From the NCBI GenBank assembly GCA_036504735.1, contig DASXUQ010000009.1, forward strand, positions 103,204 to 167,203: a DNA stretch of 64,000 nucleotides, given 5' to 3'. This DNA is from a bacterium. GTDB taxonomy: Bacteria; Electryoneota; RPQS01. A program made the position numbers and the translations under genes. Shown here in pieces: positions 8,547 through 35,281 of the stretch (its first letter is position 1; each line of letters begins with the position of its first letter). Under the pieces are notes generated by a model that was given only the letters and a program-made list of their open reading frames with translations, was not told the origin of the DNA and searched no databases.

Positions 8547-8597
8547 TGATCGGTTCCGACTCGCACGCTTCGGCGCGACGATGTCCAGCAGATCATC

Positions 8598-14177: not shown

Positions 14178-15035
14178 TTACCGCATGCCGGCCAGCAGCT
14201 CGCGAATTAATAGCAGGGCCTTCGCCAGACTATCCTCGCTGCCGAGTAGTAGTTGCTCACGGGCCATGTTCATAGCAAGCAGCATCGATCCGTCCGTGCG
14301 GGCTTCTTCAATCAGAATCCTCTCGAGTATTGTGCGAGTTGAGGTGCTCGCAAGGCTTGCAATATGTCTTCCCAGAAGCCGAGCACTGGCTTCTTCGAAT
14401 GGCCTCTCTTCGGACCAGATATCGGAGTCATCACCACGTGGATGGATTTCGGGAACATTCAAGTACTCACGCATGAGAAACAGCAAGTCCACCGCATCCT
14501 TTTCACCCCCACGCGTTTTCCGGTCCGCCCAACTGATCAGCTTCAGAATAGCCATTCCCACTGGTGAACAAACCTTGATGTCCAAGCTGGGATCGGATCG
14601 AACACGAAGGGTTACGGCGTTATCCATGGCTTCACGCATACCTACCGCCTGCATAACGAAGCCTCCATCCGGCGGCCAAGCAATGGCGCCTTTGGCGTCT
14701 TCAATGCCACCGAAAGGGATCAGGTCAACAACGGTTCCTGGGTGATGAAAGAAACGCTGGCGCTGCTTCGTGTCCTTCGTGAATTTCTTTCCGACAACCA
14801 AGGCTGACGCCATGGCCTCATAGTTCACCCAAGCCGCAACTTGCACTGAGAAGTCCACGTCTACCGTCTTCCGTCCGGTATGAATGTTGAACACGGACTG
14901 GAAGATTGCATCCCTCGCGGCGGCTCCTACCAGCATGTACTCGATGCTCAGAGGCCGAAGCACGGCGTCAAGATCCGCGATCAATCCTGCAGTTGCGGGG
15001 TCAATGGTCGCGGAGATGTCTTTCCAGATGCTCAT
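14178..15035 (-). CDS. abiEii: AbiEii/DUF1814-like nucleotidyltransferase (putative type IV TA toxin)
   Basis: 285 aa. Polbeta-type NTase motif (LVGAAARD...RKTVDVDFSV, i.e. G[GA]..R...D.DF). Overlaps the upstream HTH gene by about 35 nt, as in AbiE pairs. Confidence 0.5.
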   Translation of the reverse strand: MSIWKDISATIDPATAGLIADLDAVLRPLSIEYMLVGAAARDAIFQSVFNIHTGRKTVDVDFSVQVAAWVNYEAMASALVVGKKFTKDTKQRQRFFHHPGTVVDLIPFGGIEDAKGAIAWPPDGGFVMQAVGMREAMDNAVTLRVRSDPSLDIKVCSPVGMAILKLISWADRKTRGGEKDAVDLLFLMREYLNVPEIHPRGDDSDIWSEERPFEEASARLLGRHIASLASTSTRTILERILIEEARTDGSMLLAMNMAREQLLLGSEDSLAKALLLIRELLAGMR

Positions 15036-16095: not shown

Positions 16096-16173
16096 GAGTC
16101 AAGCCTTGACCAATGTACAACCCGTAAGGCTCTTCTTGAGGTAGGACGCGGGCATTTTTGTTTCGTCCTACGC

Positions 16174-16295
16174 ACCTTTCACAAACTCCGCAAGCAGTAA
16201 AATCAAAGACATAAAGAAGGCTTTCCTGACATTGAGAAAGCACGTGTGCCCAAAACGTGCCACAACTCGGTCACAACATATCACACTTTACGCTT
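16174..16295 (-). promoter_or_regulatory. Repeat element B: copy of element A with sigma54-like core (rc TGGCACGTTTTGGGCA at 16247-16262), about 155 nt upstream of the abiEi-like start
   Basis: Four phased units (GTGCCCAAAAC GTGCCACAAC TCGGTCACAAC ATATCACAC) and a GCTTTC..GAAAGC hairpin. Preceded by the GTAGGACG...CGTCCTAC inverted repeat (16141-16171). Confidence 0.45.
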
Positions 16296-16665
16296 GTATA
16301 GTCTATAGACATAACAAATTACGAACGTCTGTCATCATTTTACTCTGGAATCGAACTTGAGTCCTTACCCTTTGTGAATCACTCTAACATCAATAGGAAC
16401 AATACCTGTAAGTATTACCCAGTTTACCCATTCTTCATAGCTAAGTTCAGTATTTTGCTCGCGGATTTTGGGGTGTTTAGGACAGAATTAGGCCACCTTT
16501 TTGGATGTCACATGGATCACAAAGTCGTTGTTTGCGGGGTTCTTGGAAGGAGATTCGGGCAGTACTTTCACAGGCAGTCGTGGCAGACTTGGCCCATATG
16601 TCGATGGCCAGCAAGGCTCGATTGATGGTCATGAAGTCGACGTTATCTTGACAGGTTCGAGCCGG

Positions 16666-17331
16666 TCATTCCTGACCCAGTCGGTCAAGCTCATTTGATG
16701 TGCCGATCAGAAAGATCTTCGCTTCGCTTTGCAAGGATGTGAGGAAGTGGTTACCACCTTTTAGGCGGGCTCGGTATTCATCCGCAGGGTACACAATCGG
16801 ATTGAGCTCACGGTTCAGCGAGTCTTGGACGCTGTTCAGTACACCCACCAAATCACGCATGCTAATGTCACCAATGATCAGCACGTCCACGTCACTCTTG
16901 ACGTTCTCACCGCCGCGAGCAAACGATCCGAAGATAAAGGCGACTTGAATCTGATCCCCAAAAGTCTTCAGCGCATCGCGCAGTGCGATGGACACGCCCA
17001 TTGTTTTAGCCACCAGAGATCTTAGCTCTGTGAAAATCGGGCAGTCTTTGTTCGCCCGATACACCGGCTGTAGATCCCGCAGTTCTCGCAGAATGATTCC
17101 AGCTTCAGTCAGTCGCTGAAGTTCTCTTTGAATGGTCCCTTGTCCGATCCCCACCTTGCGAACGATTCCCCGGAAATGATATGAAGTGTCGGGATTCGTG
17201 AACAACAAGCCGAGGACTGCCTGCTGTGTTTTCGTGAAAAGCGCATCCGAAAGCTGGCTATAAAAGATAGTTGAACCCATATAGGGTGCCAATATACCCA
17301 CTTTGGGTGCTAAGATCAAGCAATCGGGCAA
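16666..17331 (-). CDS. wHTH-fused minimal nucleotidyltransferase (MNT-like), no HEPN partner detected
   Basis: 221 aa. N-terminal wHTH. C-terminal Polbeta NTase motif (FGSFARGGENVKSDVDVLIIGD). No ORF of at least 60 aa downstream on the same strand. Confidence 0.6.
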   Translation of the reverse strand: MPDCLILAPKVGILAPYMGSTIFYSQLSDALFTKTQQAVLGLLFTNPDTSYHFRGIVRKVGIGQGTIQRELQRLTEAGIILRELRDLQPVYRANKDCPIFTELRSLVAKTMGVSIALRDALKTFGDQIQVAFIFGSFARGGENVKSDVDVLIIGDISMRDLVGVLNSVQDSLNRELNPIVYPADEYRARLKGGNHFLTSLQSEAKIFLIGTSNELDRLGQE

Positions 17332-17552: not shown

Positions 17553-17891
17553 TTGAATATTCAGTTTGCCGATAAGAAGATGCTGAAGAGTTGCTCCGAT
17601 CCCCTATTAGCCTCGAAGGCATGGGGTCAACGAGGAGCCAAGATTCGTCAGCGCCTGGACGAATTCCGTGCTGCGGTTTCGCTCAAAGACATCGCGATGC
17701 TGCCAGCGGCACGCTTACACCCCTTGAAGGGAAACCGGTCCGGGCAGTTCGCCGTTGACATCATACACCCCTTTCGACTGGTGTTCGAGCCGGTTGGAAG
17801 TCCGAATGATCTCAACGACGTGCGCGGCAACTTGGACCTGAAAAAGGTAAAGACGATTCGCATTCTGGAGGTAGTTGATTATCATGATTGA
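17553..17891 (+). CDS. higB: HigB-family toxin (plasmid maintenance system killer protein, RelE/ParE superfamily)
   Basis: 112 aa. IQFADKKMLK...LKGNRSGQFAVDI..FRLVFEP..VVDYHD resembles COG3549 HigB. TTG start in the track; an alternative ATG lies at 17580. Confidence 0.75.
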   Translation: MNIQFADKKMLKSCSDPLLASKAWGQRGAKIRQRLDEFRAAVSLKDIAMLPAARLHPLKGNRSGQFAVDIIHPFRLVFEPVGSPNDLNDVRGNLDLKKVKTIRILEVVDYHD

Positions 17892-19005
17892 TCATAGCCT
17901 GAACCAATACCATCCCATCGAAGTCACGTTGCCCGGCGCCACGCTCTTGGAGACTATCGAATCATTGGGAATTCCTCAAGTTGAAGTAGCGCGTCGAACG
18001 GGGTTCACGCCGAAGCATATTAATAGTATCATCAGCGGCAAAGCCAGTATCACTCCCGAGACAGCACTGCGCTTGGAACGTGTCCTTGGAGTTTCGAGCC
18101 ATTTCTGGCTGAACCTTGAGCAGAATTATCAAGCATCTGTTGAACGACAGCGTGAACGTGAAATGATCGAACAGCGTATAGTGACCTACACGAAATGGGT
18201 GGCGCAGTTCCCGATTGCCGCCATGATCCGGCTTGAATGGCTGCCCAAGACCTCTGATCAGATTGACCGAGTGCGTTCATTGCTGGACTTCTTCGGCATT
18301 GCATCCGAAGAGCAGTGGTCGTGGGACAGGGTTCTTGGTACCAATACGGCGTTTCGACAGTCGCAGGCATTGAAGGCAGACAAAGGATCTGTAGCTGCCT
18401 GGGCGTGGAAAGGTTACTCTGAGGCACAACGCCTGGTATGCAGTCAGTTTAGTGCGACCAAGTTCAAAGCTGCGTTGAACGAGGCGCGCAATTTGTCTCG
18501 CAACCCATTGTCCGAATCATGGCCTGTTTTAAGAGCTCTCTGCGCTGACGCCGGTGTTGCGCTGCTAACAGTTCCAAGTCTGCCTGGACTTCACATGTAT
18601 GGGGCTGCGCGCTGGGTGAATCCTCAACGAGCGATGATCCAGTTAAGCTTCCGTGGCAAGACCAATGACCAGTTCTGGTTCAGCTTCTATCATGAAGCAG
18701 GACACATTCTTCTTCACGGCAAGACAGAGACCTTTATTGATTCTGTAGGTGCACAGGAACATACCAAGGAAGAGAACGAAGCCAACGCGTTCGCTAGTGA
18801 TGCTTTGATACCACGGGATCAGTGGAAAAGCTTCTTGGCCAGCAACGCTTCTTTCACCGGCAAGTCTATCAACAGCTTCTCAGTGAAACTTGGCATCGCT
18901 CCCGGCATCGTTGTAGGTCGGCTGCAAAAGGAGAAATTACTTCGCTACGATCAATTCAATGGCTTGAAGCAGCACGTAGATCTCTTCGATCTTACAACAC
19001 ACTGA
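17884..19005 (+). CDS. higA: HigA-like XRE-family HTH antitoxin fused to ImmA/IrrE (COG2856) zinc metallopeptidase domain
   Basis: N-terminal HTH (VARRTGFTPKHINSIISGK). C-terminal HEAGHILLH HEXXH motif. The ATG at 17884 overlaps the higB stop (ATGATTGA). Confidence 0.7.
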   Translation: MIDHSLNQYHPIEVTLPGATLLETIESLGIPQVEVARRTGFTPKHINSIISGKASITPETALRLERVLGVSSHFWLNLEQNYQASVERQREREMIEQRIVTYTKWVAQFPIAAMIRLEWLPKTSDQIDRVRSLLDFFGIASEEQWSWDRVLGTNTAFRQSQALKADKGSVAAWAWKGYSEAQRLVCSQFSATKFKAALNEARNLSRNPLSESWPVLRALCADAGVALLTVPSLPGLHMYGAARWVNPQRAMIQLSFRGKTNDQFWFSFYHEAGHILLHGKTETFIDSVGAQEHTKEENEANAFASDALIPRDQWKSFLASNASFTGKSINSFSVKLGIAPGIVVGRLQKEKLLRYDQFNGLKQHVDLFDLTTH

Positions 19006-19030
19006 TTTCTACAATCCAATAAATGAGTAA

Positions 19031-19056
19031 AGCCGGTAGCGATACCGGCTTTTCCA
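19031..19056. terminator. Rho-independent terminator hairpin (AGCCGGTA-gcga-TACCGGCT + TTT), bidirectional between convergent genes
   Basis: 8-bp perfect stem with a GNRA loop followed by a T-run, immediately after the higA stop. Confidence 0.6.
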
Positions 19057-19331: not shown

Positions 19332-21443
19332 TCATAAGTATCTGCGCAGAATCGCCTGGCGTTCGTCGGACAAATTGTCCGAAGCAGTGTTTCTGAGAGC
19401 CGACCTCAAAGATTTCAGATACGCCTTGCCCGTTCGCTCATGGGAAATCACGTTTGCAGCGTGCTCCAGTGCGTTGAGACTACGTATAGTGGCAAAGAAT
19501 TCTGTGTCTGGAGACTGCGCCTGCAACAATCGAGTGCTGACGGCTGCCGTAATACGCTCGCACTTATCCCAATCCTTCCACCTATGGCGAACTGGGGCGT
19601 ATCTCTCAACCCACGCCCAAACCTCAAATTCATGAGCATCGTCCCATAACGCATCAAACACATCCTGAAAGAACCCGCTCAGTAGATTGCTGAATGTTGG
19701 TAATGCGAGACCGAGGGCCAAACCAAACGCTGCGATACGCGGATTGTGCGGTCGATTCTCGCCGACAGTAGCAAGGTACGTTTTCCAAACTGGAGAAGTT
19801 CTCTTGGCGGTCAGTTTATCACGAGGATCCAGCACACGCGCTGCGACCATCATTGCAGAGTCGTCAATCGAAGATTGCTTCTCGACCCATTCCAGAATCG
19901 GAACTTGTTGCCCTTGAAGCGCCTGCCTCCATATCCATGTACATTCCATCCGCTTTTCCCGAATTGCGTCGAGAATTAGTGGTACGGCGACCCCGCCCAA
20001 GTCAGAGCATAGGATATCTGCGACATCCTCGGCGGGTGAGGTAAGGATACTTGCTACTAATTGACGTGCATAATCCTTATCCTGCCTCATGTCTTCGACC
20101 AACTCGGACAGAAGTTCCCGTTTTCGAGGCCCGACCCCGCTCCAAAGCCACGGCGAGCAGGCAAGAAGGCGATTTGCTTTTACCAATGTGGCCGTAAGCT
20201 CGGGATGGGTATTGACAATCTGTAAGGCATCTTGGACATCAACGTGGGCCAGAATTCTCGTCACGATCTCCTCCCCGAGTGGTTCGAGATCAGCCTTCAA
20301 CAAATCAGTTAGCAAGTCCAGTACTTGGCTTTTGCCTGCATCGTACAAACGACTGATCTCTTCCTCGATCTCTGGAATACAGAAGCTGAATAGAGCCAAT
20401 TCGTCGATAGACGCCAGCGCTCTAAGAATAGGAGTAACTCCGTCGGAGTCCGTTTGTGATTGATAGCGGCTAAATACTTGGTCAAGGAGCTTTGACAACG
20501 ACTTTGATCGTATCGTTTCGGGCGATAGGCTGCGTGATATTGTGCGAAGTAAATGGATCGGATCCGTAGACGCAGTGTCTGTCCAGTCGCCGAAAATTGT
20601 AGCCACTGAAGGCATCAGGTTGCGTGAAGACTCACTCGTGATCCAGCTATCGACCCAATAGCGAAACGACATAGGCGAGTGATCCGTAAGGTCTCTTCGG
20701 AGAACTGCCACCCAATCGCTTCTTTCGTGGGAAGTTCCTATACGGCGCGGATCAATAACCGCCGCCCCACTTGACAATCTTCGCTGCAAGGAAAGCGAAG
20801 TTGTTCGGGGGACGACTTGCACGTCAATGGTCTTTTCTAGGACAGCGCGCGGGCTAAGTGCACCGCTGCAGAAGCCGAATCTCGATCTGAGGTTTGGCCA
20901 CTGCTGCAACCAAAGAGCGAATAGAAGACCTTCAAATTGTTCGGCATTGTCACCCAAAATTAGGACAGGGCTACTGCTCTCTGAGTAAATCGACTTGATA
21001 ATGCAGTCTACCGCACTTTCCTCATCCGTCAGAAAATCGTCATCGTTGGTGCCAGTCCAAGGCTTACAGCTTGTCAACGGCTCCAGGCTTGGACCAGACG
21101 CTACGCTCTCCATGGTAGGTCTGCTAAACAGTCGCGTGATGAATTGTCGGCTTGAGATACCACGAAGTGCCGAGTTATCGAGAAGGAGAGAGTGAGTCCA
21201 CACACAGCCTGGTCTGCGCATTTCGCTTGCATACCAAGTCTTAGCCAAAACATATTGCTTTCCGTTGGGTAGCGGATAAGCAGTAACGTATTGCTCGAAT
21301 CCTGGCTCCATAGAGGGACCCGACATGTCACTCATAACCAGAAGTATTCGGTTCACCTCTGAGTCGATGCTCGTCGACGCTTGGAGTAGACGATGTCCTT
21401 CACGATAGCCGTGGACGAATTGATGAATGACAAAATTCTCCAC
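19332..21443 (-). CDS. Large (703 aa) predominantly helical protein with conserved N-terminal region (IHQFVHGY...), last gene of the 5-gene operon
   Basis: Long ORF, 3-nt gap from the upstream gene. No P-loop or nuclease motif recognised. Confidence 0.5.
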   Translation of the reverse strand: MENFVIHQFVHGYREGHRLLQASTSIDSEVNRILLVMSDMSGPSMEPGFEQYVTAYPLPNGKQYVLAKTWYASEMRRPGCVWTHSLLLDNSALRGISSRQFITRLFSRPTMESVASGPSLEPLTSCKPWTGTNDDDFLTDEESAVDCIIKSIYSESSSPVLILGDNAEQFEGLLFALWLQQWPNLRSRFGFCSGALSPRAVLEKTIDVQVVPRTTSLSLQRRLSSGAAVIDPRRIGTSHERSDWVAVLRRDLTDHSPMSFRYWVDSWITSESSRNLMPSVATIFGDWTDTASTDPIHLLRTISRSLSPETIRSKSLSKLLDQVFSRYQSQTDSDGVTPILRALASIDELALFSFCIPEIEEEISRLYDAGKSQVLDLLTDLLKADLEPLGEEIVTRILAHVDVQDALQIVNTHPELTATLVKANRLLACSPWLWSGVGPRKRELLSELVEDMRQDKDYARQLVASILTSPAEDVADILCSDLGGVAVPLILDAIREKRMECTWIWRQALQGQQVPILEWVEKQSSIDDSAMMVAARVLDPRDKLTAKRTSPVWKTYLATVGENRPHNPRIAAFGLALGLALPTFSNLLSGFFQDVFDALWDDAHEFEVWAWVERYAPVRHRWKDWDKCERITAAVSTRLLQAQSPDTEFFATIRSLNALEHAANVISHERTGKAYLKSLRSALRNTASDNLSDERQAILRRYL

Positions 21444-21446
21444 GTA

Positions 21447-22316
21447 CTACCCTTGTTGATCTAATAGCCAAGATATTGGTGCAGTAATGTCATGCGGAGG
21501 ACAGTTAAGCCCTTCCACTTGTATCCGATCCGACGCAGACATTGTTTCCACCAACTTGGTGTGGTCTCGTTTCAAATCGCCACCTTGGGCGCTTACCCCA
21601 ACGACACTGTAGTTGATGATGTCGTTGTTCGATTCGAGAAATTGGTGCAATAAGGGTAAGTAGGTGCGCAGGACCTCATCCGGATTGCCTTGTGGGATTA
21701 GGTCCCACGCAGAAATGATGACGACTGTATTCAACCCTTTGTCAGAACCACGGCGTTCTAACAAGAACTGCAACAACTCCACGTAGCCAACTTGGGTCGG
21801 CATATCGTCATATGTCCATGGCTTTGGCTTGTCGTCATTGTTTCCTTCGGCTGACGATGTGTCGTTCGCTTCCTTAATGGTGATTGCCAGGATGTTGGCA
21901 ATATCTAATCTTGGACCTAAGTTCAACTTGCCAGGATGGACGAAAAGTAGAATCCCGTCTGCGGATTGAGCCATAGCCTCGTACTCAGGAGACCATCGTC
22001 TCTCGCTTAGTTGAAGTTGAAAGACCTCGCCGAAATGGTCAGGGATTATGACCTGAATGTGCCGACCGTTCTTATCATTCAAAGATAATTTCACGGTCTG
22101 CATGTCGTTCAAGTTGGTCCTTCCGATCTCACTACAGGAAAGCCAACTCTTGTGTATCCGGTTTAGATATGTCCGATCACCCTCGAGACCCGATAGTTCC
22201 AGCAACGACTCTGTACTATTGTCCTGCACTATGTGCCATAATCCAGCAAGAAATGTTGTCTTTCCGGTCTTAGGGAGTCCAATCAGGAGTGCATGTAGTT
22301 GTGGAACTTCGGTCAC
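21447..22316 (-). CDS. Ras-like P-loop GTPase-like protein (paralogue 2)
   Basis: G1 GLPKTGKTT, G3 DHFGE, G4-like SAWD, G5-like VSAQ. 289 aa. Confidence 0.55.
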   Translation of the reverse strand: MTEVPQLHALLIGLPKTGKTTFLAGLWHIVQDNSTESLLELSGLEGDRTYLNRIHKSWLSCSEIGRTNLNDMQTVKLSLNDKNGRHIQVIIPDHFGEVFQLQLSERRWSPEYEAMAQSADGILLFVHPGKLNLGPRLDIANILAITIKEANDTSSAEGNNDDKPKPWTYDDMPTQVGYVELLQFLLERRGSDKGLNTVVIISAWDLIPQGNPDEVLRTYLPLLHQFLESNNDIINYSVVGVSAQGGDLKRDHTKLVETMSASDRIQVEGLNCPPHDITAPISWLLDQQG

Positions 22317-22345
22317 TTGCGTTCTCCGTTGATGTTGTATTCAGA

Positions 22346-23302
22346 CTATCGGAATCGCGCAATCTCGCGCGCATTTTGTACCCTTGAAACCACGCTTTCG
22401 GATTCAGTTATGGTAATTGCAGACGGCACCGCAAGCCAGTCTATGAATGCCTCTTCAACCCCATACGCTAAAGGCAAGTCCTCGCCAACGGGCCGAGCAG
22501 CCACCTCACGAACCTTAAGCGTCGGCAGGAGCGAGGAGAATGCTACATTGAGTCTCTTCTTGGTCATATTAGCGAAATCTTCCGCATCTTGTCCCCCGCG
22601 CCGAATACAATCATACTTCGATATGAGGTACTCTACTCGGGTACTGGTCCCTATCATGTTAGCATCGAGAAAGCTACGCAACATTTGGATAGCAGAGTCA
22701 AGTTCATATGCACGCGTGTCAGCATTGGAGAGCTTCTCCCCGTTGATGAGAATCGCGAGTACATCGGCTCGTCTCAGAAACACAAGCGCTCTGCAATCAT
22801 CAGCGGAATCACATGCGAGTTCATACAACTCACCAGACGGTACAGCAAAGATAACCTGCTTCTGCAATTTATCGCATTGAGTACTATGCTGTTTCAGGGA
22901 TAAGTGGTAGTAGTAGGCTTCATCCGATCCTTTCGTGCGCTCTGTCTCTGCAGTAGACAGTCCAGAAGCGAATCTGTTCAAGTGGCATACCCGTTCGTAT
23001 CCAACGAGTGTCTTGGAGCCTGCGAAGGCGAATCCGCCGAACGGTCCTTGGAGAAACTCTTCGTAAATCGAGGTCAACAGAGTCGTCTTTCCGCTTGCTA
23101 CATTTCCAGCGAACACTACAACCGTCGTCCTATCGCGGTTAGTTATTGTGTCGCACTCGGAGGCAATAAGAGCGGTGCCTGGTAGCAACCCAACATAGCC
23201 GCTCGATGCAGTGGACTCGAGCACGCCCTCCTCCGGCTTCGACTTAACGTCGTCTGGAACACTGGCGCTTGGTGGTTGATCAGAATTTGGCACTGCGACC
23301 AT
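22346..23302 (-). CDS. P-loop GTPase-like protein (paralogue 1) with N-terminal unstructured extension
   Basis: Walker A GNVASGKTT and an NKxD-like SKYD. Same domain order as the adjacent paralogue, with degenerate G3. 318 aa. Confidence 0.5.
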   Translation of the reverse strand: MVAVPNSDQPPSASVPDDVKSKPEEGVLESTASSGYVGLLPGTALIASECDTITNRDRTTVVVFAGNVASGKTTLLTSIYEEFLQGPFGGFAFAGSKTLVGYERVCHLNRFASGLSTAETERTKGSDEAYYYHLSLKQHSTQCDKLQKQVIFAVPSGELYELACDSADDCRALVFLRRADVLAILINGEKLSNADTRAYELDSAIQMLRSFLDANMIGTSTRVEYLISKYDCIRRGGQDAEDFANMTKKRLNVAFSSLLPTLKVREVAARPVGEDLPLAYGVEEAFIDWLAVPSAITITESESVVSRVQNAREIARFR

Positions 23303-23305
23303 ATC

Positions 23306-24403
23306 CTACTTCTCCTCAGCAAGTGTTTTAAGCAATGTAGTTTCGTTATACATCTGAACCGAAAGCTGATCGGCTGGCATGGACATGTCGGTCGGCAGAC
23401 CAGTCGAGGACTTGACAAAGGCAGACCATGTCTCAGCATCGCGAGCAGATCTCCGTTTCATTATAGCATTCCAGATTGGCGTCAATTCAGAGGCATGCTT
23501 GGATACAGGCGTTGCGGTGTATGCGTCAATAGTCTCAATCGGGACAGAATTGATTGCATCCGCAATCGTCGCTGTCTCTGGCCGTACAGATGTGGCAACG
23601 TGTTTCAGTAGGGTAATAGCGTATTTGGGGCCAGGCAAGAAGTGAGTCAGATCAGCGAGTTCTTTGGCCGACACTAACGGGATGGCAGAAGGCACGACCT
23701 CAGTCCACTTCCGACTAAGATCACGGCTGTATTCTGACTGGAACCACCAGAGCATATTGCACTCTTCATCGCTTCGCAGTTGGTTATCGAGCAAAAGGGC
23801 ATAGGAGGACAAGAGAGCCTTCTGTTTTGCGTCCAGATCTTTGACGACGGCCAAGATGCTTGCGTGAAAGTCAGCTGGCTGCTCGGTCGGATTGACTTTC
23901 TCGAGTTGCGCAATCAAGGGTTGGAGTTTCTTGCTCGCATCTTTAAGTACGACGTTGGCGTTGTCGCGCTCTCGAATTGTTACGGATGCACTGTCAATGT
24001 ATTGTTGGGCAAGCGTGATGACTTCCGCATAGACCTCGCGCGGGGCATTGTGAGAGATCGGCTTGGTGGAAATAAGCGCGAGCGCCGACGCGAGTCGTAA
24101 CCAGGTATCGTCACCGCTCGAAAAACAATTTACAAGCGAACTCCCGGCCAATACTTGAATCTCAAAACGGTTTCGTTGCGAAAATGCAGAATCAAACTCT
24201 TTTATGCTGGTGGTGAACTGGATCGCGGTATCGGAGTTCTCTAAATCCGTGCCGATGAAAATGCGCAAAGTGTCAAAGAGTAGCTTGTGGCTGGCCCTAA
24301 TCTGAGAGCACCACTTCTCGACTCCTGTCCATCTGCGTTTCAGCAGGTCATCATTCGGGACGATAGATGCAATGCGGTACCACTCAGAAAAATCACGATG
24401 CAT
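23306..24403 (-). CDS. Helical protein of unknown function (365 aa) in the GTPase operon
   Basis: ORF overlapping the upstream metallophosphoesterase (MPE) gene by 11 nt. No motifs recognised. Confidence 0.45.
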   Translation of the reverse strand: MHRDFSEWYRIASIVPNDDLLKRRWTGVEKWCSQIRASHKLLFDTLRIFIGTDLENSDTAIQFTTSIKEFDSAFSQRNRFEIQVLAGSSLVNCFSSGDDTWLRLASALALISTKPISHNAPREVYAEVITLAQQYIDSASVTIRERDNANVVLKDASKKLQPLIAQLEKVNPTEQPADFHASILAVVKDLDAKQKALLSSYALLLDNQLRSDEECNMLWWFQSEYSRDLSRKWTEVVPSAIPLVSAKELADLTHFLPGPKYAITLLKHVATSVRPETATIADAINSVPIETIDAYTATPVSKHASELTPIWNAIMKRRSARDAETWSAFVKSSTGLPTDMSMPADQLSVQMYNETTLLKTLAEEK

Positions 24404-25760
24404 GATTAGCCTCGGTTCCTTCTTGGTTGGATGAGAAAGGATTATCTACGGCGTCAATCCCATGGCGTTTCGCAGTCTCTTCCCACAATCTAGCAAGCAT
24501 GCCCTTTGATTTCGCCCGCGAGAAAGCGAGCGCAAGTAGCTTGGCGTTTGCTAAGAGCTTATCTGATTCCTCCAGCAGGCCGAGCTCAAGCAGGATATCT
24601 ATTTGGTCAGGAAAAGGAAGCGACATAAAGAGATAAGTCAGACGGCGTTCGTTATCCACTATGTCTCCTTCACGGCTAACTTCGACAGGAGTCGGCGCGG
24701 GATTATCATTCGACGGTGTCTCATTAGATGGAGCAATAGTCACAATCACATCACTAGTTGCACGGAGAGTGTCAGCTCTCATGGGAGCCGCGTTTTCCCA
24801 AATGGCCTCAGAGAACAAGTCGCCACTTATTGGATCAGGATAGGGCTGAAACTTCAGGGTAGTCTTGTTCAACTGTCTCGCGTAGCTCCGAATCCTAAGC
24901 CGCTGTTCGTCCACACGTCCTATCTGCAAAAGATTGTACATGGGAAGCCACTCTGGCTCGCGCCTATCAGGATGAGTCGCTCCCGCTATCAACCGCAGGC
25001 CACCGTTAATGTGCGTGACTTCCGGCGCATGCTTATGACCGTACAATTGTAATCGAGCACGCGATTCGGTAGGTCTCACGATTCTATTTTTGTCACGAAA
25101 CCAGTCTAATGGATGATGGCACAAGAAAACAAACTCCGTGTGCGCGGCGTTTTCATATTGTGCCTGAAGGCTTCCCAGGATCAAGTTACTTTCTTGATCA
25201 TCCGAGTCCGAAATAAGGACAGATGTACCACCGCGAAGAACAATTCGTGTTCCGCAGGGTAACACCAATGGCTTTTCCCAAAATGGCTTGTCTGCAGTAA
25301 TATCGCAGGAATACTGCATTGCGAAGGTGTTGTAATTTGTCAACGGCGACATTAGCGCTTCAGCGAGTGGATGATCTTCCGCCGCGTCCCACAATTCTTG
25401 ATCAATTTCGCCCACTGCTAGCTTTCGAAAGCGCTCGTGTAAAATGCGGGTTGTCTTGCTGCTTTCTATCACGGTGCGATCTACGTCGTGATTTCCAGGA
25501 ACTGTCCACACATGCTCGTCAGAACATCCGAGCTCCGCATTAAGATGCTCAATCCATTGCTGCGCCTTTGTGTATTCCGCTTCCTTCCCAGAATAAGCGA
25601 TGTCTCCTGTAATCAGCAAGCCACTGACTTGGCCCAGGTCCGCCGCGTTCGACACTGCGTCGTGCAACAAATTGTCCCGCAGGACCTTGTCAAGGTCGTG
25701 AAGCGAGGTGTCAGAGCGCTTGGTGAAATGGATATCCGACAGGTGAACGAAAGTCAGCAT
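24393..25760 (-). CDS. Calcineurin-like metallophosphoesterase with C-terminal helical extension, first gene of the operon
   Basis: MPE motifs: LSDIHF (D-x-H), GDIAYSG (GDxxDRG-like), GNHD, and a downstream CHHP/GHKH. 455 aa. Confidence 0.7.
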   Translation of the reverse strand: MLTFVHLSDIHFTKRSDTSLHDLDKVLRDNLLHDAVSNAADLGQVSGLLITGDIAYSGKEAEYTKAQQWIEHLNAELGCSDEHVWTVPGNHDVDRTVIESSKTTRILHERFRKLAVGEIDQELWDAAEDHPLAEALMSPLTNYNTFAMQYSCDITADKPFWEKPLVLPCGTRIVLRGGTSVLISDSDDQESNLILGSLQAQYENAAHTEFVFLCHHPLDWFRDKNRIVRPTESRARLQLYGHKHAPEVTHINGGLRLIAGATHPDRREPEWLPMYNLLQIGRVDEQRLRIRSYARQLNKTTLKFQPYPDPISGDLFSEAIWENAAPMRADTLRATSDVIVTIAPSNETPSNDNPAPTPVEVSREGDIVDNERRLTYLFMSLPFPDQIDILLELGLLEESDKLLANAKLLALAFSRAKSKGMLARLWEETAKRHGIDAVDNPFSSNQEGTEANHAS

Positions 25761-26077
25761 TGTACATGTTCCAGTGAAGCCGAGCTTCGGTGATCACTAT
25801 ATCTTACTAATGTATTCGGTCGCAATTCGTGTACGTCATCGGGCCATAGGCACACTTGCGCATAGGCCTAACGAAGGCTCTAACAGCAGCGCCATGTCTT
25901 CTCCTGAATGTTCATATGAGTATACGATGTCGAAGCGGAGGCTTAGCTAACAGACCCGAATGGTTTGATACGGGACAAGCGAACCCTGCCACTTCATCAG
26001 CGGAAGATTCGCTCGCACATAAGTTGCCCGCCATGATGAATCTGTGGCCGCAAGTAATTGTGCTATAAGCTACTAAA

Positions 26078-26371: not shown

Positions 26372-26632
26372 ATGAAAACGTTGTTGACTGCTAAGCAGAC
26401 GGCAGTCTACCTGAATGTCAAGCTGAGCACGATCCGAAAGTGGACGCATCTCGAATTCATTCCTGTTGTAAAGATGAGAGGCGCTGTACGATATGACCAG
26501 GCGAAGCTTGACGTCTGGATCGAAAAGCGATCCGCTGAAGGACGGACCAGGCTAAGGAAATCCGTGCACGAGAATGGTGCCGGACTTCCTCGACGCGATC
26601 CCACGAAGCCTGTCTCTTTTGAATTGGATTAG
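26372..26632 (+). CDS. Excisionase/AlpA-like HTH DNA-binding protein
   Basis: 86 aa with a MerR/Xis-type HTH (KQTAVYLNVKLSTIRKWTH). Good RBS (AAAGGAAATCC-ATG). Preceded by the GCTGGCTGG...CCAGCCAGC inverted repeat. Confidence 0.6.
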   Translation: MKTLLTAKQTAVYLNVKLSTIRKWTHLEFIPVVKMRGAVRYDQAKLDVWIEKRSAEGRTRLRKSVHENGAGLPRRDPTKPVSFELD

Positions 26633-26821: not shown

Positions 26822-28165
26822 TCACCGAGCTTTCTCCACACTGGATCTGGCCCAGCGCATCTGCCTTTGTGAGTATTGCTGTTCTTCAATGTGCCGAATT
26901 AAAGCATGTTGCCGAACATCGTTTACCATCAACGAGACCTTTCGTGATTCGGCCACATTTAGCTTCAGAGAGGCCGGATTTACAAGCACAGCACCGTTCT
27001 TCAGTGCAAGGCCGAAATCGGCGTTAACGACCGCTAAGGATGATCGAAAGTAGTCAACAAAAGTGCGCATATCGAACCGGTCGAGATGCGTTGCGACGTG
27101 GATGTTCAAGATATCTGTTTCGTCCGGTGATCGGGTGATATCGATTATCAGCCTACATACCCTCTCCCCTGTAATAGCAAAGTGATCATCACATATTGCC
27201 TGGATGTCGACTGGGAACACAATAGCACTCCCAGCAATGAAGACCGAATCTGTACGCCCCAATACACGGTACCTTGGCGCCATCCTTCCGCACACGCATC
27301 GGTCAGGTAGCACAACTCCCAAATCGCCAAGCTTATATCTGATTAAGGGCATGAGATCACGGAACGTAGTCACGATGATCTCCCCGAGTTCATAGTCCCT
27401 TGCAGGTTCCTCCGTGACCGGGTTAATCAATTCGATGAAAGTCCCACGCGAAACTGCATGGACCCCTTCACACTGTGGTGAGCCAAAGCCAAGCATCATT
27501 GTCTCTACGCTACCGTATAGCTCGGATATGTCGTTGGTCCTCCAAAGATGAGACAATAACCTTCGCGTTCCATTCGTGATAAGCTCGCCGCAGACAATTA
27601 GGGATTTGACATTGCTGAGTCCGGATTCGAAGTACTTTCGGCCCAATGGTAACAATGTTGTCGGCATGCCAAACAACGTACAAGTGTCTAACGATGGCAA
27701 CAGAGCCACGACTGAATCTGCCTCATGAACAGAAATGGGTAATGTTATCACCCCCAGTCTCTCGGCAGCATCAAGTAACTCCGCTGAACCACTATGGCTG
27801 TAGCTCAAGATTGGAATAAAGTACGTACTTTGATCGACCCGCGATAAAGCGAGACCTTCGCTCAGATTGAGAGTCCATTCTTCGACATCTTCTCGTGACA
27901 GGAGTAGTTTCTTGTGCGCCCCCGTAGTGCTGGATGAAAGAAAGACTCGCCGCGCATCCGAAAGATCGCCGCATACAAGTTGCCTAGATGCTTGCTGCAC
28001 TTGGCCTGGCGTAATGTAGGGCAACTGTCTAAACGATGCGTATTCGAAACTCGCAGAATCTTCGAGGTCCAAGCCATCATAGATTGAATGATAGAATTCA
28101 GATCGAGCGAAGGCTCGACGAACAAGCTGGAGTGACGGTTGTGCAGGAAAGTTATGCAATCGCAA
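26822..28165 (-). CDS. PaaK/CapK/F390-synthetase-like adenylate-forming enzyme
   Basis: 447 aa. SSSTTGAHKK (SSGTTG-like P-loop of ANL enzymes) and YGSVETMML (YGSTE). AT-rich codon usage unlike the surrounding genes. Confidence 0.6.
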   Translation of the reverse strand: MRLHNFPAQPSLQLVRRAFARSEFYHSIYDGLDLEDSASFEYASFRQLPYITPGQVQQASRQLVCGDLSDARRVFLSSSTTGAHKKLLLSREDVEEWTLNLSEGLALSRVDQSTYFIPILSYSHSGSAELLDAAERLGVITLPISVHEADSVVALLPSLDTCTLFGMPTTLLPLGRKYFESGLSNVKSLIVCGELITNGTRRLLSHLWRTNDISELYGSVETMMLGFGSPQCEGVHAVSRGTFIELINPVTEEPARDYELGEIIVTTFRDLMPLIRYKLGDLGVVLPDRCVCGRMAPRYRVLGRTDSVFIAGSAIVFPVDIQAICDDHFAITGERVCRLIIDITRSPDETDILNIHVATHLDRFDMRTFVDYFRSSLAVVNADFGLALKNGAVLVNPASLKLNVAESRKVSLMVNDVRQHALIRHIEEQQYSQRQMRWARSSVEKAR

Positions 28166-28172
28166 ATCCTTA

Positions 28173-28766
28173 CTATTGCGCCGTGAGCTTTTGGTAGAAT
28201 ACTGGATCGCAGAGTTGGTCCTTTTTCATTGCGGACCGCCTGCATTTGACAAAAGAACAAAATGCCGCTAGGAACACGACTATCGAGATCACCAATAAGA
28301 CCTGGAGGCTGTCGGATATTGAGTCTATGGTCGAATTGCTCACCACGACAAATGTCAGATTGCTAGCTGTAATCCAGAGGATGCTTAGTACGAAGACCAA
28401 CATGAGAAAGAGTTGACCTATGATTCGCAGTGTTCTCATCACGAGAATTTGGTACTTCCAATAACGCCAATCTGCAATTCCGTCTAGCACAATGAGGTTG
28501 GCACTGTGTCGCACTAGCTGTCCGACAAGAGAAGTATTTTTTAGGGTCGCTGCAGCTGCTTCGCCGGGGCTTGCATATTCAGTGGTTACCGGTGTTGGAA
28601 GCTCCTTGACCGAATTGATGATTCGTTCCCTAATGCGCTGCAGCATCTGCATGTGAACTTCAAAACTCTCCAAAGATGCCTTCAGCCTATCCACAAAGGC
28701 ATCGAGGGCCATGAACATTGCCAACGTGATTGTCATGACCGCCAATACGGATCTGATGTCAAGCAT
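28173..28766 (-). CDS. Integral membrane protein, unknown function
   Basis: 197 aa with several hydrophobic helices. Overlaps the symporter gene by 8 nt. Confidence 0.4.
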   Translation of the reverse strand: MLDIRSVLAVMTITLAMFMALDAFVDRLKASLESFEVHMQMLQRIRERIINSVKELPTPVTTEYASPGEAAAATLKNTSLVGQLVRHSANLIVLDGIADWRYWKYQILVMRTLRIIGQLFLMLVFVLSILWITASNLTFVVVSNSTIDSISDSLQVLLVISIVVFLAAFCSFVKCRRSAMKKDQLCDPVFYQKLTAQ

Positions 28767-30210
28767 TACTCAATACCTTGACTGACTTACCCTTACGTGT
28801 CCGCTTGCCGAAAATGAAATAGATTCCACCCGTCACCAATACCGCGATTATCGGTGAAATCGCCGCCCATCTACCATGATCCATTACTATCATTGGGAAC
28901 ATTATCGTTAAGCCGACCACAACAGCAGTGAGCGCCACTCTGGGGCTCTTGTAGTCATCCTTAACACTGCCAATTAGGAGTGGTACGAGAATCAGCTGTG
29001 CGCCTGCGAATAGAAATGCGCCTTCGATAACACCAGGAAGCACAAATGCAAGGGCAACCCCGAGAACGCCCATGACCGCAACAATTAGTCGGGACTGCAT
29101 CATGCTCACCTCGATCCCCGGCTTCATGCTGGGCAGAAAATCTTGGTAAACAACCTGCGCGGCGGTGATCAAACATGTGTCGGCAGTAGAAAGTGCAACC
29201 GCAAATATCAACACCAAAAAGCTGCCAATAATCCCTTGCGTTGCTGGCCCGGATCCATTTGTAAACTTGATAAGACTAGGAAGAACTCCTTCGAAGCCCT
29301 CAGCCTGAACTGGCAAAATGTTGTACGCCAACAAGCCGACACTCAGAATACCAAGAAAGAAGATACTACCCAACACGCTCCATATTAACCCTGATTTGGG
29401 CTCACTGAGGTTTCTGCTCGCATTAGCAGCTTGGGTACGAACCCACATGTCCATTGCGGTTATCTGGAAGGCCACCCCAATTACCACCAGTAGCACGATA
29501 ACTCCAATGCTCTCGCTGATCGGAATAGTGCGTGCAGCAAATAGGGTAGACACAGGAACCGGATGAGCGGCAAATACCGAATAGCTGAACCACACCACGG
29601 AAATTCCTAGTATGCCTGTCTGAATCCCATCGGTGAGAAACACACTCTTGTAGCCGCCGATAATCGTGTAGAAAACACATATGAGTCCGCCAAGCAAGAT
29701 CAGCCAGTATGCGTCATCTGCCCAGAATGGACCGAGTATCTTCGCAACCGCGAGAAGCTCTGCCGAAAAGGTTGCCCAATAGCTTACTATTATGGCGACA
29801 CTCACGACAGTAGTAAGTTTGCGTGTGTCTTTGTCCGCTTCATAATTGTTAGATATGAATGATATGATACTGTAATTTTCTGTTTCGGAGAAGAAAGCTC
29901 TGACTTTTAGCACCTTCGAAATGAATCGTCTATATACTATTAACCCAATTATGAAGGATCCCAAGATTCCGATTCCGATTGACCAGCCATATCTGTAAGC
30001 ATAAGCAATGGTCAGTACAAGCCCTCCAGAGACAGAAATATTAGTTCCAATCGTATTAAGCGCGAAATGATACCAAGTCATGTCGCGTGCAAATAGGTAG
30101 TCTTTTGCTGAGACCATACCTCTGCGACTTAGAAAACCGACAATGAGGCTTCCAAATAGCAATACGGCAAGTAAAATAATCGCGAAAAGAGCTTCAAAAG
30201 ACATTGCCAT
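28759..30210 (-). CDS. Sodium:solute symporter (SSS) family transporter
   Basis: 483 aa, about 13 TM segments. SSF-like pattern (GGLVLTIAY..., YKSVFLTDGIQ). Confidence 0.7.
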   Translation of the reverse strand: MAMSFEALFAIILLAVLLFGSLIVGFLSRRGMVSAKDYLFARDMTWYHFALNTIGTNISVSGGLVLTIAYAYRYGWSIGIGILGSFIIGLIVYRRFISKVLKVRAFFSETENYSIISFISNNYEADKDTRKLTTVVSVAIIVSYWATFSAELLAVAKILGPFWADDAYWLILLGGLICVFYTIIGGYKSVFLTDGIQTGILGISVVWFSYSVFAAHPVPVSTLFAARTIPISESIGVIVLLVVIGVAFQITAMDMWVRTQAANASRNLSEPKSGLIWSVLGSIFFLGILSVGLLAYNILPVQAEGFEGVLPSLIKFTNGSGPATQGIIGSFLVLIFAVALSTADTCLITAAQVVYQDFLPSMKPGIEVSMMQSRLIVAVMGVLGVALAFVLPGVIEGAFLFAGAQLILVPLLIGSVKDDYKSPRVALTAVVVGLTIMFPMIVMDHGRWAAISPIIAVLVTGGIYFIFGKRTRKGKSVKVLSNA

Positions 30211-35226: not shown

Positions 35227-35281
35227 GGGGCGATCTCTCCTCTGCTTGCATCAAACGATGAAAGATTGAAACAAAAGCTCT

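Follow-up and report, generated by a model that had tools for sequence, protein, structure and literature searches.

Five co-directional genes spanning 6.4 kb (19332-25760, minus strand) of the window, by which we mean the whole 64,000-nucleotide stretch of DNA analyzed, are on sequence grounds an intact copy of the GAP1-N1-type DO-GTPase conflict system, already predicted computationally by Kaur, Burroughs, Iyer & Aravind (eLife 2020, PMC7159879). We regard it as probable that this cassette is an intact, horizontally mobile DO-GTPase conflict system, most likely providing anti-phage or anti-mobile-element immunity through the switch mechanism proposed below. From the first gene of the operon to the last, its components are:

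24393..25760, minus strand: effector gene, 455 aa, metallophosphoesterase of the calcineurin-like type, GAAD adaptor at its C-terminus (Pfam Metallophos, 8.4e-10; GAAD, 2.4e-8)
23306..24403, minus strand: GASH, GTPase-associated system all-helical protein, 365 aa (PF19994, 1.5e-23)
22346..23302, minus strand: DO-GTPase2, divergent paralogue, 318 aa (PF19993, 2.7e-34)
21447..22316, minus strand: DO-GTPase1, fully equipped TRAFAC GTPase, 289 aa (PF19975, 2e-67)
19332..21443, minus strand: GAP1, GTPase-associated protein 1, 703 aa (GAP1-N1, PF20012, 4.3e-30)

All five proteins lie above Pfam gathering thresholds (Metallophos plus GAAD, GASH, DO-GTPase2, DO-GTPase1 and GAP1-N1), and every one falls into a curated family of this one conflict system; the families of the published system are PF19975, PF19993, PF20012, PF19994 and PF19976 (PMC7159879). 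Its components and gene order all match those of the window operon, with a calcineurin-type, GAAD-tagged effector followed by GASH, two paralogous DO-GTPases and, immediately downstream of the GTPases, GAP1-N1. The two also share a Glu after the Walker-B Gly in both DO-GTPases, the lack of transmembrane segments and a distribution mostly among non-multicellular bacteria. Phosphoesterase plus GAAD is the most frequent effector configuration of the system (PMC7159879). The original prediction regarded the system as undescribed, which the exact match and the dedicated Pfam family for each component contradict; the loose resemblance that it saw to predicted GTPase-centric systems is real and was understated. 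Because the Pfam E-values of GASH, DO-GTPase2, DO-GTPase1 and GAP1-N1 range from 1.5e-23 to 2e-67 and the gene order recurs in 59 of 80 genomes, the operon is not a chance finding.

We found no experiments on any DO-GTPase/GAP1 system in the searchable literature, so its immune function is argued from guilt by association and from the published prediction. No solved structures of the four core proteins (GASH, DO-GTPase1, DO-GTPase2 and GAP1) were found, and neither PADLOC nor NCBIfam has models for them. No PADLOC model matched these four, in keeping with the earlier view that the operon does not fit Septu, Lamassu, Gabija, Eleos or Kiwa. A system that spans many phyla and has its own Pfam families is absent from PADLOC; if it were shown to work, bacterial immunity would gain a class of GTPase switches beside the STAND and AAA+ switches. 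As the window copy is compact, soluble and complete and carries the commonest effector, it is a reasonable test case, as are the enterobacterial orthologues.

Operon architecture and genomic setting

All five minus-strand ORFs lie at the coordinates first proposed, and gene calling done independently for the source contigs returned identical lengths; all are full length relative to their homologues, with no frameshifts. From gene 1 to gene 5 the junctions measure -11, +3, +29 and +3 nt. The packing is therefore tight, and the spacing of 11 nt or less claimed for the whole operon holds at three junctions but fails at the 29-nt DO-GTPase2/DO-GTPase1 junction, which is preceded by GGAG. GASH matches PF19994 over its full length (profile positions 3-398 of 398). 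PGAP annotates one gene of the operon as “GTPase-associated system all-helical protein GASH”. Two candidate regulatory features lie outside the coding region:

25796..25825, minus strand: candidate sigma-70-like promoter, TTGCGA-18-TATAGT, 9/12 matches; weak
19029..19052, minus strand: candidate intrinsic terminator, 10-bp stem AAAGCCGGTA...TACCGGCTTT

The candidate promoter is immediately 5' of the effector gene, and such sites are not above shuffle expectation in this region. The candidate terminator, about 280 nt 3' of GAP1, would be common to the convergent HTH/M78 gene; counts of intrinsic terminators likewise do not exceed shuffle expectation.

The surroundings are those originally described. 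One flank of the operon holds a weak HigB-like match and an HTH/M78 gene, and the opposite flank an HTH_17 excisionase-like gene and an integrase. Defense genes in the window comprise AbiE, PDC-M05A, Septu PtuAB and Mza, so that the proposed defense-island setting stands, and the operon itself sits between two validated defense systems, Septu and Mza.

Distribution, mobility and effector exchange

The gene order is conserved well outside the source genome: 59 of 80 other genomes carry the identical five-gene arrangement, in loci from Spirochaetota, Myxococcota, Acidobacteriota, Planctomycetota, Chloroflexota, Bacteroidota, Pseudomonadota, Elusimicrobiota and CPR bacteria. The effector is the first gene in at least 59 of the 80 loci, GASH keeps its position in at least 69, and GAP1 directly follows a DO-GTPase gene in nearly all 80, as it does in the window (3-nt gap). 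No sixth conserved gene was found across these loci, whose flanks are unrelated. Plasmids carrying the cassette number 26, of which 19 are conjugative; conjugative carriers include Klebsiella and Aeromonas plasmids, and on an IncFII/IncR plasmid of K. pneumoniae it lies between IS26 copies. It was also detected on a Leptospira phage (a plasmid-prophage) and on 5 IMG/VR contigs. Defense neighbors elsewhere include BrxL, GajB, PD-T4-6 and mad6, seen in a sample of loci without a background control.

The effector position also varies in content. At one locus (L082) it is occupied by a PNP phosphorylase with GAP1-EAD1, and at another (L078) by a 1205-aa protein that is unrelated to the phosphoesterase yet carries the same GAAD tag. 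At two more (L043 and L046) no metallophosphoesterase gene was detected and a gene for an ENPP-type phosphodiesterase, which may be a mere neighbor, directly follows GAP1.

Such mobility could also mean that the cassette is a maintenance or competition module of mobile elements, acting by addiction or by exclusion of rival plasmids and phages and serving its carrier rather than host immunity. Carriage on conjugative plasmids, the IS26-flanked copy, the Leptospira plasmid-prophage and the integrase and excisionase adjoining the operon in the window all suit this reading, but the copies are mostly chromosomal with unrelated flanks and are rare on viral contigs. Bona fide defense systems typically ride mobile elements too, so this explanation, which we consider improbable as the whole account, overlaps with host immunity and does not exclude it.

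The metallophosphoesterase effector

The effector joins its Metallophos and GAAD domains on a single polypeptide:

25023..25754, minus strand: metallophosphoesterase catalytic domain, aa 3-246, with conserved catalytic motifs
24474..24647, minus strand: GAAD, GTPase-associated adaptor domain, aa 372-429 (Pfam PF19976, 2.4e-8)

The identification of the first gene as a calcineurin-like phosphoesterase with intact catalytic motifs is borne out by the Metallophos match and by the presence of the quoted DIH, GDIAYSG and GNHD motifs. D9-x-H11, G52-D53, G89-N90-H91-D92, H215/H216 and G241-H242-x-H244 are each kept in at least 90% of the family. When the phosphoesterase family profile was compared with the PDB, the best matches were to the phosphodiesterases GpdQ (7e-9), Lmo2642 and Rv0805/Icc, followed by SbcD (8e-3). 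The effector also matches positions 1-235 of the NCBIfam profile DS8_antiphage (E 3.4e-29), at the level of the domain only. In PADLOC, only generic effector and PDC-S models matched the phosphoesterase. The nearest relatives of solved structure thus act on small molecules, as phosphodiesterases, and we predict that the effector is a metallophosphodiesterase of the GpdQ, class-III PDE or DS-8 type and is catalytically competent.

With the same system and switch, the effector might instead be a nuclease akin to Mre11/SbcD, breaking down the DNA of the invader or the host. This variant is suggested by the best PADLOC match of the N-terminal 129 residues of the effector, the model PDLC00736 (“Effector - Endonuclease”, 2.4e-16), and by the weakly matched SbcD chains. 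However, the phosphodiesterases outscore SbcD, the prediction of Kaur et al. is likewise a nucleotidyl phosphodiesterase (PMC7159879), and DS-8, to which the domain matches, has been linked by its authors with the cGAMP phosphodiesterase SMPDL3A (PMC13092281). The ENPP-type nucleotide phosphodiesterase that follows GAP1 at two loci points the same way, though perhaps only as a neighbor. We therefore judge a nuclease to be unlikely, and retain a nucleotide-directed phosphodiesterase as the preferred assignment.

The two DO-GTPases

The Pfam matches to both proteins substantiate the proposed pair of adjacent, paralogous small P-loop GTPases, and the sequence motifs quoted for them are present: the 289-aa protein carries GLPKTGKTT, DHFGE, SAWD and SAQ, and the 318-aa protein carries GNVASGKTT and SKYD. 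DO-GTPase1 carries G13-x4-G18-K19-T20-T21, R66-T67, D93-x-x-G96-E97, S202-A-W-D205 and S242-A-Q, whose residues are 96-100% conserved in the alignments; E97 (in D93-H-F-G96-E97) is Glu in 79 of 79 sequences. Its AF2 model (pLDDT 86.5) matches Arl13B, Arl6, RagD, EF-Tu and MglA in Foldseek at probability 1.0, in keeping with a TRAFAC fold. New relative to the published description is the Arf/Rag/MglA-like G domain modeled for DO-GTPase1.

DO-GTPase2 retains its P-loop (GNVASGKTT), G157-E158 and S-K229-Y-D231, and the E158 position is Glu in 71 of 75 relatives. Family logos and per-locus states reveal two changes: V154 at the Walker-B Asp position, which upholds the claim that one GTPase has a degenerate G3, and Asn in place of Asp187, a residue that is Asp in 74 of 75 sequences, the Asn being unique to the window copy. 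The Walker-B Asp is lost (to Ala, Gly or Val) in a clade of 16 of the 75 DO-GTPase2 sequences. These changes set the window protein apart from the published system, as does the missing zinc ribbon. An N-terminal zinc ribbon on one DO-GTPase was given as characteristic (PMC7159879), whereas the 65-residue N-terminal extension of the window DO-GTPase2 has a single Cys. The four-Cys motif occurs in 22 of 75 relatives, none of them in the clade of the window copy, and hence is not universal in the family. That the zinc ribbon is missing from this clade, as is the Walker-B Asp, is a new observation. Since DO-GTPase2 of this clade has lost the Walker-B Asp but still has its P-loop and the guanine-specificity motif KxD, it is probably a GTP-binding, hydrolysis-impaired regulatory partner.

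Together, V154 and the unique N187 mean that the window copy could be impaired, and the entire operon might be in decay and no longer functional. We think this improbable: the five full-length reading frames are free of frameshifts, all other conserved motifs are intact, and the loss of the Walker-B Asp, being common to the whole clade, looks like a tolerated clade feature. We accordingly continue to treat the operon as an intact copy.

GAP1 and the proposed switch

GAP1, for which we collected 189 full-length homologues, gave an AF2 model with pLDDT 89.5 and pTM 0.79 that divides into three parts:

21129..21443, minus strand: GAP1-N1 domain, aa 1-105, the most conserved part of GAP1, modeled as longin-like
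20739..21020, minus strand: second alpha/beta domain, aa 142-235, possible DENN-core-like lobe
19335..20717, minus strand: alpha-solenoid, aa 243-703, all-helical in the AF2 model

PF20012 matches aa 6-100 (104 bits against a cut-off of 27) and is matched by 45 of 45 GAP1 homologues. The operon had been said to encode two large helical proteins, which is correct for the all-helical GASH but not for GAP1, given this conserved alpha/beta domain. GAP1-N1 has a modeled longin-like topology, beta-beta-alpha-beta-beta-beta-alpha-alpha, and two invariant motifs, S38-D39-x-S41-G42 and R77-P-G-C-V-W-T83, with R77 in the beta4-beta5 loop. No Pfam match was found in aa 102-703, so that, relative to the published system, GAP1-M and GAP1-C go undetected by Pfam in the window protein; 2 of 45 homologues give a weak GAP1-M match (E 0.1), and in the model an alpha/beta domain lies in the middle of the protein and helices make up the C-terminal region. 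Foldseek returned just weak HEAT/ARM-type matches for the alpha-solenoid, and a near-invariant W625-D626-x-C628-E629-R630 lies close to the C-terminus. In the model, the N-terminus of GAP1 appears to be a longin/DENN-type GTPase-regulator module, and Arg77 is, speculatively, a candidate arginine finger.

We propose the following mechanism. DO-GTPase1 and DO-GTPase2 would form a heterodimeric guanine-nucleotide switch, as their paralogy, strict co-occurrence and translational coupling suggest, in which DO-GTPase1, which retains every catalytic motif, would be joined by DO-GTPase2 as the probable hydrolysis-impaired regulatory partner. The conserved N-terminal longin/DENN-like module may dock GAP1 on this pair, much as FLCN-FNIP, GATOR1, C9orf72-SMCR8, DENN proteins and MglB dock on Rag, Arf, Rab and MglA, so GAP1 could be a GAP, a GEF or an effector platform. 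An invader-derived cue would be sensed by the more variable GAP1 alpha-solenoid, the all-helical GASH or both. As Kaur et al. inferred (PMC7159879), the GAAD tag would tether the phosphoesterase to GAP1, and switching of the GTPases would release or activate the enzyme. Its putative cleavage of a nucleotide-type substrate, with the catalytic motifs observed in place, would then arrest the infected cell or the invader. The original idea of a GTPase switch gating the effector agrees in its logic with the published prediction.

More tentatively, GAP1 may be a regulator of the longin-DENN type in bacteria that controls a Rag-like GTPase heterodimer inside a mobile immune operon, possibly as a GAP with the invariant Arg77 as its arginine finger, and thereby gates a nucleotide phosphodiesterase. 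If so, the GTPase pair and longin/DENN platform of eukaryotic and Asgard Rag/Arf signaling would also be a widespread bacterial conflict switch, in a bacterial version arising by common descent or by convergence. The longin/DENN-like model gives the “function unknown” GAP1 a specific hypothesis, a GAP or GEF platform with Arg77 as the candidate residue, and connects the proteins that regulate Rag, Arf and Rab GTPases with the conflict systems of bacteria.

The same resemblances could indicate a housekeeping or signaling GTPase module, akin to MglA/MglB polarity or Rag-type nutrient signaling, combined with a cyclic-nucleotide phosphodiesterase and having no role in conflict: the GTPase fold is nearest to Arf, Rag and MglA, whose regulators GAP1 resembles, and the phosphoesterase resembles cNMP phosphodiesterases. 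We find this highly improbable in view of the patchy cross-phylum distribution with different flanks in every genome, the carriage on plasmids and IS elements, the swappable effector slot, the embedding of the window copy among Septu, Mza and AbiE, and the presence of the system in only 262 organisms (PMC7159879). A conflict role thus remains the preferred reading.

Comparison with known systems

Among experimentally validated systems, DS-8 (metallophosphatase-NACHT) and DS-9 (metallophosphatase with HAD) from DefensePredictor share a homologous metallophosphoesterase effector domain and a P-loop NTPase switch that controls it, and catalytic mutants of the DS-8 and DS-9A metallophosphatases lose defense (PMC13092281). 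Control there lies with a fused STAND ATPase of the NACHT type or with a HAD partner, in contrast to the GTPase pair, GAP1 and GASH seen here, and the Pfam search of the operon revealed neither a NACHT gene nor a HAD gene. Full-length identity with either system was rejected; the scores of 101 and 66 bits are far below the curated cut-offs of 790 and 420 bits, and therefore only the domain is shared. Eleos (LeoA/LeoBC) resembles the operon as a GTPase-based anti-phage defense with several GTPase genes per operon, but its GTPases are of the dynamin family and it has no GAP1, GASH or phosphoesterase. It was rejected as a candidate, as no PADLOC Eleos model matches any of the five proteins.

The GAP1-N2-type DO-GTPase systems (PMC7159879) have the same core of DO-GTPase and GAP1, and differ in their GAP1-N2 domain, in FNIII-repeat proteins replacing GASH, in their transmembrane segments, in tubulin, HSP70 or kinase effectors and in their association with multicellular bacteria. 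MglA/MglB of Myxococcus is likewise a bacterial small GTPase under a platform protein of the roadblock/longin class, and MglA matches the structure of DO-GTPase1, but this polarity module is chromosomal, contains one GTPase only, has a roadblock rather than longin topology, and lacks an effector enzyme, GASH and GAAD. The eukaryotic and Asgard longin-DENN regulators and their GTPases, such as FLCN-FNIP/RagC, GATOR1 (NPRL2-NPRL3)/RagA, C9orf72-SMCR8/Arf and DENND1/Rab35, share with the operon a paralogous pair of small TRAFAC GTPases reminiscent of the Rag heterodimer, a partner whose N-terminus is modeled as a longin domain plus an alpha/beta lobe, an invariant Arg in the longin-like domain, and a DO-GTPase1 model that matches the G domains of RagD and Arl proteins.

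Identity and layout of the operon

Each of the five proteins encoded by the operon matches Pfam above the family gathering threshold: Metallophos (8e-10) and GAAD (2e-8) for the effector, GASH over its full length (1.5e-23), DO-GTPase2 (2.7e-34), DO-GTPase1 (2e-67), and GAP1-N1 (4e-30) for GAP1. The matched families were established in the eLife paper of Kaur, Burroughs, Iyer and Aravind (2020, PMC7159879). There, "GTPase-centric subsystem 1: GAP1-N1-containing systems" comprises GAP1, GASH, two DO-GTPase genes and a variable effector, most commonly a calcineurin-superfamily phosphoesterase, and fusion of the effector to the GAAD adaptor is "a frequent configuration". The window operon has the same configuration, a calcineurin-type effector fused to GAAD, and almost certainly belongs to this GAP1-N1 DO-GTPase system. 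The original prediction sensed a resemblance to predicted GTPase-centric conflict systems, which is borne out; it also called the system undescribed, which is wrong, since this effector-GAAD configuration was already published.

Genes of the operon (window coordinates)
24393-25760, minus strand, ORF: calcineurin-like metallophosphoesterase effector with GAAD, 455 aa
23306-24403, minus strand, ORF: GASH, 365 aa
22346-23302, minus strand, ORF: DO-GTPase2, 318 aa
21447-22316, minus strand, ORF: DO-GTPase1, 289 aa
19332-21443, minus strand, ORF: GAP1, 703 aa

The five ORFs lie exactly where the original prediction placed them, and the same five products were obtained from independent gene calls (JGI metagenome 3300035523, contig Ga0376481_000051, 365 kb; Logan assembly). 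Spacing within the operon is -11, +3, +29 and +3 nt, so that the claim of gaps or overlaps of 11 nt or less holds at three junctions and fails at one, which is wider (29 nt) and has a GGAG ribosome-binding motif. In pattern scans for promoters and terminators, counts in the operon region did not exceed shuffle expectation, leaving a candidate promoter at 25796-25825 and, from the terminator scan, a candidate hairpin at 19029-19052, both weak. No convincing transmembrane segment was found in the five proteins, and a membrane-associated system was rejected on that ground.

Conservation and mobility

Homologues of DO-GTPase1 number approximately 950 at E<1e-5, the closest non-self one sharing only 48% identity. 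A sample of 80 genomic loci with 10-kb flanks was scanned by iterative HMM searches seeded with the five window proteins. Conservation of the gene order outside this genome, a check proposed with the original prediction, was found at 59 of these loci, where phosphoesterase, GASH, DO-GTPase2, DO-GTPase1 and GAP1 follow in exactly this order, all on the same strand and either slightly overlapping or separated by small gaps; the exceptions are for the most part loci at contig ends or in frameshifted assemblies. Among the hosts are Spirochaetota, Myxococcota, Acidobacteriota, Planctomycetota, Chloroflexota, Bacteroidota, Elusimicrobiota, a CPR bacterium, and Alpha-, Beta- and Gammaproteobacteria, among them Salmonella enterica subsp. 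arizonae; in complete E. coli genomes, no DNA nearly identical to the cassette of this subspecies was found. No gene family recurs beside the cassette: the largest flanking cluster occurs in 6/80 loci, which led us to reject a sixth conserved component and indicates that the five genes form a self-contained unit placed in unrelated contexts.

The cassette is also present on 26 PLSDB plasmids, 19 of them conjugative. The conjugative IncFII/IncR plasmid pRHBSTW-00510_3 of Klebsiella pneumoniae, of wastewater origin, bears the full five-gene cassette (NZ_CP056434.1, 23174-29294) flanked by IS26 copies, with PGAP naming its products "metallophosphoesterase", "GTPase-associated system all-helical protein GASH" and, three times, "hypothetical protein". 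Related copies are found on plasmids of other Klebsiella, Aeromonas salmonicida and Pantoea. Carriage by phages is rare (one Leptospira phage and five IMG/VR contigs).

Genomic neighborhood

Within the window, G+C falls from approximately 0.57 to approximately 0.50 at roughly 12.6-13 kb, and the operon lies in the lower-GC island beyond this point.

Genes surrounding the operon (window coordinates)
1737-12596: genes for two very large proteins (2269 aa, 1332 aa) with M23 peptidase, PKD, fn3, Big_7 and CARDB domains, directly ahead of the island in higher-GC sequence
14178-16095: AbiEii/AbiEi
16666-17331: PDC-M05A nucleotidyltransferase (Polbeta/NTP_transf_2), PADLOC candidate match 6e-71
17553-19005: HigB-like gene and HTH/M78 gene
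26372-26632: HTH_17 excisionase-like gene
26822-30210: AMP-binding-like enzyme (weak match), 197-aa hydrophobic protein and sodium:solute symporter-family protein, between the excisionase-like gene and the integrase
30863-31972: tyrosine integrase
32199-34135: complete Septu, PtuB 216 aa and PtuA 429 aa (PADLOC E 3e-71 and 9e-140), immediately beyond the integrase
34282-39160: ThyX thymidylate synthase, 329-aa protein without Pfam match, and ORC-CDC6-like ATPase (2e-95) overlapping an HD-CE protein
39483-48645: MzaE, DUF4420, MzaC, MzaB and C5 methylase
50860-53466: 868-aa protein with DUF5906 primase/helicase-type domain

With AbiE, PDC-M05A, Septu and Mza around the operon, the guilt-by-association argument for an immune role made in the original prediction is sound. 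The ORC-CDC6-like and HD-CE pair, for which Pfam families exist and PADLOC has no model, may be another predicted conflict pair, and the genes at 26822-30210 look like metabolic cargo within the island. DUF5906 primase/helicase-type domains are typical of integrative elements, and the gene carrying one suggests that the defence-rich region is part of one or more integrated mobile elements. At other loci, a batch PADLOC scan of the nearest large flanking ORFs found BrxL, GajB, PD-T4-6 and mad6 homologues at two loci each, as anecdotal examples.

A 159-nt direct repeat (77% identical; 12971-13129 and 16149-16307) brackets AbiEii/AbiEi and two small ORFs. It contains iterated CACAAC-type motifs, has no Rfam or tRNA match, and may represent either an att-like site or a duplicated regulatory element (promoter or operator). 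No other repeat came up when the surroundings of the integrase were searched for att-like repeats, and scanning the window for tRNAs and Rfam families gave no match.

The effector and its replacement at other loci

All metal-binding and catalytic motifs of the phosphoesterase are present (D9-x-H11, G52-D53, G89-N90-H91-D92, H215/H216 and G241-H242-x-H244), with conservation of at least 90% within the family. Against solved structures, the family profile ranks GpdQ (7e-9), Lmo2642 (4e-5) and Rv0805/Icc (3e-3 to 6e-3) ahead of the nuclease SbcD (8e-3), an order that favors a small-molecule or nucleotide phosphodiesterase. We consider the effector to be probably a nucleotide phosphodiesterase; the PADLOC "Endonuclease effector" match of the protein speaks for a nuclease, which is the less likely reading. 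Residues 6-251 also match positions 1-235 of the NCBIfam DS8_antiphage profile (E 3e-29), and DS9_1 is matched too.

The effector slot varies among loci. The Leptospira phage has a PNP/UDP phosphorylase gene after the core, and its GAP1 carries a C-terminal EAD1 domain. In Hansschlegelia quercus (locus L078, 4403-8020) the product of the first gene is 1205 aa long, with a C-terminal GAAD (2e-16) as its sole Pfam match, and its N-terminal part of approximately 1100 aa is a putative effector of unrecognised type. At two Vicinamibacterales loci, the gene next after GAP1 encodes a type I (ENPP-like) nucleotide phosphodiesterase (L043, 13121-14662; L046, 12674-14521), and no calcineurin-type effector gene was detected at either. 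The effectors listed in the available portions of Kaur et al. (PMC7159879) do not include an ENPP type. This gene might be only a neighbor; if it truly belongs to the system, the calcineurin gene has given way to a nucleotide phosphodiesterase that is not its homologue, which points to a nucleotide as substrate. Enzymatic cargo that changes while the regulatory core stays constant is what marks a conflict system.

The GTPase pair

Invariant or near-invariant in DO-GTPase1 are the P-loop GxxxxGKTT, R66-T67 (candidate switch I), D93-x-x-G96-E97, S202-A-W-D205, the equivalent of NKxD, and S242-A-Q. Its AF2 model (pLDDT 86.5, pTM 0.85) retrieves the G domains of Arl13B, Arl6, Arl2, RagD, RagC, EF-Tu and MglA in Foldseek with probability 1.0 at 10-15% identity, which identifies this GTPase-like protein as a P-loop TRAFAC GTPase. 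Absence of a P-loop NTPase fold, which the original prediction named as a refuting result, is thus not what the model of this protein shows. DO-GTPase2 retains the P-loop, G157-E158 and [ST]-K229-x-D231. At its Walker-B position, 51 of 75 relatives have Asp, 8 Glu, and 16, forming the window's clade, Ala, Gly or Val; the window copy has the only Val (residue 154), its clade relatives having Ala or Gly. The degenerate G3 noted in the original prediction is thus correct. Residue 187 is a unique Asn where Asp is conserved in 74/75. The four-Cys zinc ribbon (Cx4C-x6-GxC-x8-10-C), called characteristic by Kaur et al. (PMC7159879), is present in 22/75 relatives and, unlike in that description, absent from the window copy. 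From these motifs we reasonably infer that the GTPases would pair asymmetrically, one subunit being catalytic and the other regulatory.

A possible longin-like module in GAP1

The AF2 model of GAP1, built from a 45-sequence alignment, is confident (pLDDT 89.5, pTM 0.79) and has three parts.

Parts of the GAP1 model
aa 4-105: N-terminal part, beta-beta-alpha-beta-beta-beta-alpha-alpha
aa 142-235: second alpha/beta domain
aa 243-703: all-helical solenoid

In the predicted structure, strands and helices of the N-terminal part follow the longin order. The comparison list for GAP1 contains, with figures, FNIP2 (8.1), NPRL2 (7.8), C9orf72 (7.5), T6SS TagF (7.5, 208 residues), NPRL3 and DENND10 (7.2, 212 residues), and a second group of LAMTOR5, TRAPPC2L, folliculin, Fuzzy, the RagC C-terminal domain and Ykt6. 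Foldseek of the model against the PDB returned only weak generic HEAT/ARM solenoid matches, and lenient Pfam searches of aa 102-703 and all 45 homologues gave no longin or DENN signal, with GAP1-M marginal only. Within GAP1, conservation is highest in N1, where 38 positions reach 90% or more, those of the motifs S38-D39-x-S41-G42 and R77-P-G-C-V-W-T83 among them, as would be expected of a surface binding conserved GTPases.

The longin-DENN heterodimers FLCN-FNIP2, NPRL2-NPRL3 and C9orf72-SMCR8 are arginine-finger GAPs for Rag/Arf GTPases (PMC12290439, PMC8213707). On the basis of this precedent, the longin order and the conservation of N1, we propose that GAP1 may act on the DO-GTPase pair as a platform of GAP or GEF type, R77 being a candidate arginine finger and the solenoid a possible sensor or docking surface for GAAD. 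TagF is a caveat to this likeness, as a bacterial DENN-like fold need not regulate GTPases. A heterodimeric GTPase switch gated by the longin-like module of GAP1 is thus a tentative model, somewhat doubtful as it stands. The fold assignment offers a concrete mechanism open to test in a class known only by prediction.

Comparison with known systems

PADLOC v2 and NCBIfam r20 contain no models matching the four core proteins, sequence searches of the PDB with DO-GTPase1 and GAP1 gave no significant relative, and in the searchable literature we found no experimental work on DO-GTPase/GAP1 systems, only the 2020 prediction paper (PMC7159879). Membership in Eleos or dynamin systems was rejected; in the DefensePredictor supplements, DO-GTPase profiles appear solely where short P-loop stretches of Eleos proteins match them. 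DS-8 (metallophosphatase-NACHT) and DS-9A are validated in E. coli, where metallophosphatase catalytic mutants lose defence, and their authors regard the cGAMP phosphodiesterase SMPDL3A as a relative of the domain (PMC13092281). The effector shares only this metallophosphatase domain with them; because its scores fall far below the curated cut-offs, the homology is at the domain level, and membership in DS-8 or DS-9 was rejected. By analogy with this validated homologous domain, and considering context, mobility and the variable effector, a conflict or immunity role is likely. Kaur et al. (PMC7159879) make no mention of longin, roadblock or DENN. The window copy is a new instance of their computationally defined kind, recognisable at once from Pfam, and its clade is set apart, as judged from sequence, by a DO-GTPase2 without zinc ribbon and without the Walker-B Asp.
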